Shown piece after piece: positions 313 to 1,326 of a stretch of 1,326 nucleotides of DNA (position 1 is the first letter of the stretch; each line of letters begins with the position of its first letter). Source of the stretch: Escherichia coli (lineage in GTDB: Bacteria; Pseudomonadota; Gammaproteobacteria; Enterobacterales; Enterobacteriaceae); the NCBI RefSeq assembly GCF_003334255.1, contig NZ_QOWU01000163.1, one strand, 5' to 3'. The notes below the pieces were generated by a model that saw nothing but the letters and a program-made list of their open reading frames with translations, was not told where the DNA came from and made no database searches. The translations under genes were made by a program, and so were the position numbers.

Positions 313-1326
313 TCACGATGCGGTATCAAAATCGTCTGTATAGGATTTCAGGTAAAACAGAACCGGGTCATGGATCCGAATTTTACTCTTATCATGAAGT
401 ATTGAACCACCCATGTAAAAAAGCACATCTGCTTCATACCTGAATGTAATTTCAACCCGCACATCACCCTGTCCGGCAGGAATACTCCATGAGCCTGACG
501 CACTTCCGCCAACATCAGAATATACCGGCTCATATCTGCTGGCGTTTTTGGAAATCTGGACCTCCCGCTCCCCGGTTTTGACTTTGCCTGACCTGGCATG
601 AACGACAACTTTGTCATTTATCTTCATGATGAATTCACCTCTGGAAAATGAATACGCCATAAGCATAAGCTTGCGATCAAACGGCATGTTGTCTTTCAGC
701 AAAATCATTTTCTGAAAAGTCAGCTGGTTCTGAGTCATTACGCCCTGCCCCATATCAACCGTGTATCCCTTGACGATATCACCAATGATTCGGTCAGCGC
801 TCATCGTTCCATTAATGGTGCAGTCTTCCGCAATCGTCACGTTATTCAGCGTACCGGAACTGGCACTGATATTCCCGCTGATATCGGCATTACGGGCCGT
901 CAGCCTGCCGTCCGGCGTCAGGGAGAATGCCGGGGGATTGCCGCCGCTGGTAATGGTGGGGGCGGTAAGAACCTTTATCAGGGCCTCATTGATAAACGTC
1001 TGTCCCCCCTGCGTGACCAGTGCGGGTGTGGTATCACCATTCTCCGGATTAATGAATGCCACACGGTCCGCTGCCAGCAGTATCTGGCTCTGCATCCCGT
1101 CAGGGGTGTTCTCAATACCGGCACCGATACCGGCAATATAGCGACGACCATCCTGCATCTGCTGTAGCTTCACCGCCCACATGCTGTTCAGGTCATTATT
1201 TGTGTCCGTCTGCACACGCTGGATTTGCTGTATGGTGGCGTTCTGGTCCTCCAGCGTTTTACTGACCGTCTGCGTGATTTCATTGCGGGTTTCTGTGATG
1301 GTGGTCTGCATTTCCGCCATCTCGTC
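313..1326 (-). CDS. J: Host specificity protein J (lambda gpJ-like central tail fiber / tip attachment protein), C-terminal 337 codons; 5' end beyond the window
   Basis: One continuous minus-strand reading frame runs from the window edge at 1326 to a TGA stop at 313..315 (plus-strand 'tca'); the ORF track lists it from an internal Met at 1320, but the frame stays open for two more codons (D, E) to the edge. The translation contains motifs I recognise from the lambda J C-terminal region: MWAVKLQQMQDGRRYIAGIGAGIE, then LLAADRVAFINPENG, then LTAPTITSGGNPPAFSLTPDGRLTARNADISG, then NVTIAEDCTINGT and IIGDIVKG. It is by far the longest ORF, and the other listed ORFs are nested in it in other frames. 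The last ~150 aa are not recognisably lambda-like. Confidence 0.9.
   Translation of the reverse strand, partial: DEMAEMQTTITETRNEITQTVSKTLEDQNATIQQIQRVQTDTNNDLNSMWAVKLQQMQDGRRYIAGIGAGIENTPDGMQSQILLAADRVAFINPENGDTTPALVTQGGQTFINEALIKVLTAPTITSGGNPPAFSLTPDGRLTARNADISGNISASSGTLNNVTIAEDCTINGTMSADRIIGDIVKGYTVDMGQGVMTQNQLTFQKMILLKDNMPFDRKLMLMAYSFSRGEFIMKINDKVVVHARSGKVKTGEREVQISKNASRYEPVYSDVGGSASGSWSIPAGQGDVRVEITFRYEADVLFYMGGSILHDKSKIRIHDPVLFYLKSYTDDFDTAS

Follow-up and report, generated by a model that had tools for sequence, protein, structure and literature searches.

The receptor-binding domain (RBD) at the C-terminus of protein J chooses the outer-membrane protein of a lambda-type phage, and is the part that is exchanged to retarget lambda-derived particles (PMC11338833). 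We analysed a stretch of 1,326 nucleotides (nt) of Escherichia coli DNA (contig NZ_QOWU01000163.1 of assembly GCF_003334255.1; henceforth the window), whose sole long open reading frame (ORF), on the minus strand at 313-1326, holds the last 337 codons of a J gene and its TGA stop at 313-315. The ORF is open at the N-terminal side of the window, and the N-terminal ~839 codons of J lie outside. The fragment is the C-terminal part of a lambda-family tail tip protein J: the NCBIfam model lambda_TipJ (NF049904) matches its 337 amino acids (aa) with 310 bits, phmmer pairs it with the solved lambda gpJ chains (8XCJ, 8IYK) at E ~1e-65, and the central fibre domain PF09327, a mark of lambda-type J, precedes the RBD. 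The window is 99.6% identical at the nt level, with zero differences inside J, to a prophage of E. coli 2015C-3121 whose full-length J (1176 aa) is 64% identical to lambda J and scores 2135.9 bits with NF049904, above the curated cut-off of 1950 bits (lambda J scores 2290.5 bits), in an alignment that stops at residue 1134. The tail module of this prophage is lambda-like as well, and in its annotation and that of the phages PhiR12_1 and PhiR12_5 the tape measure gene (H) is followed by M, L, K, I and J and then by a side tail fibre gene (stf). Domain names are used here as in the description of lambda gpJ, in which the RBD is immunoglobulin (Ig)-like, four loops at the bottom of the domain enter the LamB trimer, and an inward shift of the top loops passes the change on to the fibre (PMC11101478). 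An initial annotation of the window had taken the C-terminal domain to be the host-range-determining part of J, which is indeed the position of the RBD (PMC11101478).

The RBD of the window starts directly after the motif GDIVK (fragment residues 182-186, window 769-783). The boundary had been drawn here in the initial annotation with the correct coordinates and frame, since translation of 316-765 yields the 150 aa YTVDMG...DFDTAS and 769 is the end of GDIVK, and its view that the protein is lambda-like up to this motif holds. The fragment shares about 65-70% of its residues with lambda J as far as GDIVK and 24% over the final ~150 aa, and the BLASTP alignment with lambda J (NC_001416; fragment 10-308 with J 822-1115, 41% overall) is dense before the end of GDIVK and sparse beyond it. 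We compared the J C-termini of lambda and 14 other phages, 13 from E. coli and one from Klebsiella. Over the 135 aa that precede the boundary, the fragment is 65% identical to lambda, 59-76% to the 13 other E. coli lambdoid proteins and 41% to the protein of the Klebsiella phage; over the 151 aa that follow, identity to each of the sampled E. coli lambdoid RBDs is 25-29%. Those RBDs form four classes (lambda; ev203/A8/BP-4795; PPompW/2G7b; EH1846/mEp332/2B8) that are mutually 38-65% identical. Of 120 phage records with matching DNA, 115 have alignments confined to window ~801/832-1326 (~75% identity), and below ~800 no phage record matches except those of five PhiR12 phages. The GC content falls from 55.2% upstream to 44.8% in the RBD, and that of third codon positions (GC3) from 67% to 48%, the largest drop on entering the RBD among the classes compared. 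The domain is matched by phrog_5269 (E = 1.2e-17). Judged from these sequence comparisons, the C-terminal ~150 aa are a distinct RBD class, outside all lambdoid classes sampled.

Is a domain so diverged still a member of the gpJ family? The initial annotation had proposed a BLASTP comparison of the last 150 aa with lambda J, and no close match emerged from it: against the last 132 aa of lambda J, identity is 24% over 110 aa, with E = 1e-4 for this one single pairwise comparison, and PFDR and PAGxG are in register. Sensitive comparison detects the homology too. In an hhalign comparison from which the conserved fibre was excluded, the two alleles of the domain (see below) matched eight lambda-like RBDs over RBD residues 22-111 with 86.7% probability (E = 4.4e-6), and a custom hidden Markov model (HMM) of 23 lambda-like RBDs gave the domain 20.6 bits as against 6.5 bits for the best of 2000 shuffles. 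The phmmer alignment to the A8 gpJ chimera runs over fragment residues 15-292. A model by AlphaFold2 (AF2), made with a 25-sequence alignment for a query that included 25 conserved fibre residues, is all-beta at low confidence (mean predicted local distance difference test, pLDDT, of 60), and when it was searched against the PDB with Foldseek the top four matches were A8 and lambda gpJ (E ~1e-8, template modelling score ~0.5), the next following at 1.7e-4. A single-sequence AF2 model made without an alignment was set aside at a pLDDT of 44, and Foldseek against BFVD returned only generic beta-sandwich, C1q-like and tail-fibre matches and was uninformative. By profile and motif, then, the domain is a remote homologue of the Ig-like gpJ RBD rather than a foreign module. 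The earlier description of the tail as not lambda-like is therefore right about the sharp divergence, at 24% identity, and too strong for RBD residues 22-111, which are remotely yet significantly homologous to the gpJ RBD. Its suggestion that an unrelated domain had been swapped in is disfavoured by the homology of the core (hhalign, custom HMM, Foldseek) and the alignment of the final strand by MAFFT.

Within the domain, the positions kept in MAFFT alignments are D26, F30 and R32 (PFDR), F41, a KN turn and P97-A-G-x-G. The RBD starts with GYTVDMGQG and ends with KSYTDDFDTAS, and both the N-terminal AFPR/FPK start and the C-terminal KKxxxGIS[IV]x end of the PF12421 family are absent from it; KK..GIS is found on every intact lambda-like C-terminus in a 42-cluster panel. 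The hhalign, HMM and NCBIfam alignments all end at about RBD residue 109-111, and MAFFT sets the final strand against the last strand of the family, tentatively DPVLFYLKS with SDLLVVVMKK. Two segments are insertions (Table 1). The first, ~11 aa around GEFIMKINDKV, stands opposite an ~11-residue gap in all lambda-like RBDs, in the loop corresponding to the second receptor-facing loop, and forms a low-confidence hairpin in the AF2 model; the second is in the long loop preceding the last strand, and segment 142-154 of the model has a pLDDT below 50. We take the loop with insertion 2 to be the equivalent of the lambda loop with D1107, a residue to which Meyer et al. 2012 reportedly mapped host range, and place lambda host-range changes at S1012, ~1076-1078 and 1104-1107. 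From the strand alternation in the model and these positions we infer that the conserved motifs would form top loops, and the replaced or lengthened segments bottom loops.

Table 1. Features of the window, by position
Feature	Position	Strand	Basis
3' end of gene J (tail tip / central tail fibre protein)	313..1326	minus	ORF, translation, NF049904
End of alpha-helical shaft, including part of a ~23-aa stretch absent from lambda J	1186..1326	minus	BLASTP with full J
Central straight fibre (beta-prism), Pfam PF09327 Phage_Tail_Tip	850..1233	minus	E = 4e-31, fragment residues 32-159
Divergent RBD, 151 aa after GDIVK, GYTVDMG to DFDTAS	316..768	minus	Identity, phrog_5269
RBD core (RBD residues 22-111), with PFDR, KN and PAGQG motifs	436..705	minus	hhalign, custom HMM, BLASTP
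Insertion 1, ~RBD residues 44-58, GEFIMKINDKVVVHA	595..639, approximate	minus	MAFFT alignments A3, A4
Allele-variable tract, window allele vs PhiR12 allele, 8 nt differences	370..486	minus	Sequence comparison
Insertion 2, RBD residues 125-133, HDKSKIRIH, ~9 aa	370..396, approximate	minus	Alignments A3, A4
C-terminal 40 aa of RBD, aligned by no profile	316..435	minus	Ends of hhalign, HMM and NCBIfam alignments
J-stf intergenic region, 184-nt spacer	129..312	minus	No ORF, no lom similarity
Start of side tail fibre gene (stf-like), MTVRISGVLKDGTGKPV...	1..128	minus	Translation

All carriers of the domain belong to one J lineage, with 96-98% nt identity. The body of the J gene is a patchwork, with a synonymous divergence of 0.045-0.13 and a ratio of nonsynonymous to synonymous polymorphism (pN/pS) of ~0.1. 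This mosaic contrasts with the far more uniform tract between window ~849 and the stop codon, where the carriers are identical except for one set of 7-8 substitutions at 370-486. These distinguish the window allele from that of the PhiR12 phages by S95G, V103A, D114G, M119R, K127T, K129Q and H133P, and five of these seven changes fall within the lengthened last loop. An intermediate allele was found on one contig. With 7.5 nonsynonymous and 0.5 synonymous differences, pN/pS is ~4 in the tract as compared to ~0.1 in the J body (p = 0.003, Fisher's exact test), a contrast to be read with the caution that a mosaic background makes simple rate tests generous. This pattern fits a recently spread module that may be under diversifying selection at its receptor face. 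As a description of the current pattern, modular exchange between unrelated J backbones was rejected, given the single shared J lineage and the uniformity of this tract. Both alleles are present on the three prophage contigs of one IMG genome (643348545), which suggests exchange between co-resident lambdoid prophages.

The domain is rare. In a megablast search of 5,426 complete E. coli genomes it was found in 29 (0.5%; at 52 places with 98-100% nt identity), and the names of many of these mark them as Shiga-toxin-producing strains, whereas A8-related RBD sequences occur in about half (2,648) of the same genomes; the counts are 98 for the lambda type, 3,378 (62%) for the PPompW type and 2,112 (39%) for the EH1846 type. 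Up to six matching places were seen per genome (SW070917, DETEC-S792 and NCTC9112). By tblastn against phage records the RBD is present only in PhiR12_1, _2, _2_star, _4 and _5, at 95% aa identity, and a scan of IMG/VR recovered nine loci with 95-100% identity, of which a single genome contributed three, and no intermediates. Across the 29 genomes, five phages and nine viral contigs the domain is thus 95-100% identical. A HMMER search of 1.84 billion representative proteins, clustered at 50% identity such that full-length J proteins with RBD relatives could be hidden, returned no distinct relative: its five hits comprise three copies of this RBD and two repetitive proteins, probably of bacterial Ig-like repeats, in which SGSWSIPAGQGDVRVEIT alone is matched and which were dismissed as a motif-level resemblance. 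This segment (RBD residues 88-108, window ~445-507) weakly matches repeat units (...DGTWSLTIPAGD...TATVTD) of large repetitive, apparently Ig-like bacterial proteins, a likeness that is consistent with an Ig-like strand-loop-strand and is no evidence of relatedness. A word-indexed protein search with the RBD gave three partial E. coli proteins. In the literature, neither the PhiR12 names nor the PV3405xx accessions led to a paper, and we found no publication characterising this RBD type.

Evidence that the domain functions comes from the phages that carry it. In the deposited genome of phage PhiR12_1, J is intact at 1176 aa and bears this RBD, and the host listed is MG1655; other PhiR12 phages list E. 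coli C. Given K-12 and E. coli C as the listed hosts of PhiR12 phages, the domain probably works, and its receptor should therefore be present in both strains. Downstream of stf in PhiR12_1, a gene annotated as 'tail fibers' (tfa-like; 6715-9450 of the examined locus) is apparently interrupted by an insertion sequence (IS) of two genes, a transposase and an ATP-binding helper, and PhiR12_1 may thus lack side tail fibres like laboratory lambda. Because this tail-fibre assembly gene appears to be interrupted, J alone probably suffices for infection. In PhiR12_5, a 1-nt deletion in the G5 run at window 931 splits J into two coding sequences (5534-6061 and 6139-9063); the frameshift may be a homopolymer sequencing error or real, and the record is described as the complete genome of an isolated phage.

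We consider it about 75% probable that the J tip of the window is a rare and highly diverged allele class of the Ig-like gpJ RBD, which would act in the lambda-like mode with rebuilt receptor-facing loops. The first ~186 residues in the window are the conserved helical shaft and beta-prism fibre, and the framework strands are kept together with PFDR, KN and PAGxG, which would lie on the top face that packs against this fibre. The four loops between the motifs, presumed counterparts of those that enter LamB in lambda, are replaced, two of them lengthened (by ~11 aa and ~9 aa), and the C-terminal end is rewritten. Most probably as in lambda, the trimeric domain would dock on an outer-membrane protein, the base of the docked RBD would spread, and the movement would be relayed via the conserved fibre to open the tail tip, with the new loops setting specificity. 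Several points weigh against this interpretation. The Pfam model PF12421 (Ig_GpJ_C), which matches the last 132 aa of lambda J at 7.6e-75 and is carried by every RBD-family match listed in our profile search (best 120 of 261), does not match the fragment even at an independent E <= 10, and the first 21 and last 40 RBD residues are aligned by no profile comparison. The structure prediction proposed in the initial annotation did rank A8 and lambda gpJ first, but the confidence of the model is low and its alignment was mostly lambda-like, which renders the Foldseek result partly circular. The allele contrast comprises only 8 substitutions, and the evidence of infectivity consists of the host fields of GenBank records.

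Two other accounts of the domain have to be weighed against a diverged gpJ RBD. Had an unrelated module from outside the gpJ family been joined to J by illegitimate recombination, one could understand the missing PF12421 match, the absent terminal family motif, the drop at the boundary in GC (55% to 45%) and GC3 (67% to 48%), and the want of a distinct relative among the 1.84 billion representative proteins. However, the core scores significantly above shuffles with the family profile and reaches 86.7% probability in hhalign, PFDR, KN and PAGxG are conserved in register, and the best structural matches are gpJ RBDs; because of this homology we regard an origin outside the family as improbable. 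It is still harder to credit that the divergent tail is the decaying, non-functional end of a defective prophage gene, as might be suspected from the split J of PhiR12_5 and from the many database entries for the domain that are partial proteins. Intact ORFs are present not only in the window but also in E. coli 2015C-3121 and six IMG/VR contigs, the near-identity of the domain among genomes, phages and viral contigs speaks against decay, PhiR12_1 is an isolated phage with an intact J, and the frameshift of PhiR12_5, perhaps a homopolymer sequencing error, is located before the RBD.

If the domain is a gpJ RBD, which receptor does it serve? Its sequence suggests that it probably sets a distinct host specificity, and our best guess for the receptor is a trimeric porin. 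The initial annotation had read the divergence as implying a different receptor. A different receptor is plausible, but it is not implied, because the RBDs of phi330, 434 and lambda are mutually only 35-40% identical, and phi330 and 434 both use OmpC whereas lambda uses LamB (PMC12502783). The A8-type RBD uses OmpC as well (PMC11338833). The domain could be another sequence solution for a receptor already known for lambdoid J (OmpC, LamB or OmpF), an explanation that we hold as a serious if tentative one. It would accord with the two OmpC users among RBDs of 35-40% identity, with OmpC as the receptor of the A8 type, with growth of the PhiR12 phages on K-12, which has all three porins, and with the retention of the framework and the conserved trimeric fibre. 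Against it, each of the four loops presumed to face the receptor has a different sequence, and two a different length, and identity to every class of known receptor is only 25-29%, all of which is still compatible with the same receptor. The opposite proposal, that the receptor is none of LamB, OmpC and OmpF and is new to lambda-type J, the seven allele differences being adaptive and tracking receptor variation, strikes us as rather unlikely. It also seems unlikely that the 1A2 variant has this RBD, because 1A2 does not deliver into MG1655 (PMC11338833), which PhiR12 phages name as their host.

The closest points of reference are the solved gpJ RBDs. The lambda domain (PF12421; PDB 8XCJ/8XCK; binds LamB) shares with that of the window its position directly after GDIVK of a lambda_TipJ protein, a predicted all-beta fold, the PFDR, KN and PAGxG motifs and a remotely homologous core. 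It differs at 24-28% identity and in being recognised by the Pfam model; the window RBD is 18 aa longer, with two loop insertions, and is without the AFPR start and the KKxxxGISVV end. The A8-type RBD (PDB 9WCA/9WCB; binds OmpC), with natural copies in PhiR30_1 and Stx1a_PV02105, aligns in sequence over a longer stretch than any other solved structure and ranks first in Foldseek, and both sit on a lambdoid J backbone, although identity between the RBDs is ~24-29%. The PPompW/2G7b/PhiR5_1 and EH1846/mEp332/2B8 types have the gene, the boundary and the framework motifs in common with the window, but are 38-65% identical to one another and to lambda and have KKxxxGIS ends, in contrast to the 25-29% of the window RBD. 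For evolution within the domain, Meyer et al. reportedly shifted the host range of lambda J experimentally from LamB to OmpF in 2012 (see also PMC11101478). That work reportedly involved a few nonsynonymous changes concentrated in RBD loops, which resembles the allele pattern described above.

Among the classes sampled, receptors are cited for lambda (LamB) and A8 (OmpC). Were the receptor of the window domain new, it would be an added specificity module and a natural test of how much loop rebuilding the gpJ scaffold tolerates with the triggering face kept, and it would offer a ready-made, portable module for retargeting lambda-based delivery particles. Were OmpC or LamB bound, the domain would be one more allele of a well-understood system.

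Outside the RBD, the BLASTP alignment of the full-length J with lambda J opens a 23-residue gap in lambda opposite NSQLKDEMAEMQTTITETRNEIT.. in the shaft. These ~23 extra residues of the J lineage lie at window ~1250-1326 (residues 836-861 of the 2015C-3121 protein), and judged by length alone (1157-1165 aa) the extension is apparently common to other non-lambda J proteins. The five differences between the window and 2015C-3121 (positions 78, 84, 87, 176 and 181) are all in the start of stf or in the spacer before it. In lambda and most relatives examined (for example EH1846, mEp332, 2G7b, PhiR30_1 and BP-4795) lom is present at the J-stf junction; in the window, neither an ORF nor similarity to lambda lom was found in 129-312, and Lambda_ev203 and 4A7 are likewise without lom. 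A terminator scan of the spacer picked up a terminator-like hairpin, AACCGGTACTGCGGTT followed by a T8 run (window 163-148, minus strand), ~20 nt 5' of the stf start codon and within the expected late operon, and a second GC-rich inverted repeat, GGGTGCC...GGCACCC, lies at ~209-232. The stf-like gene is annotated in 2015C-3121 as 'prophage tail fiber N-terminal domain-containing protein'. That prophage also has, downstream of its tail fibre genes (4558-5832 of the examined locus) and adjoining a DinI-like gene, a gene for a YadA C-terminal domain-containing protein, a trimeric autotransporter-like adhesin.

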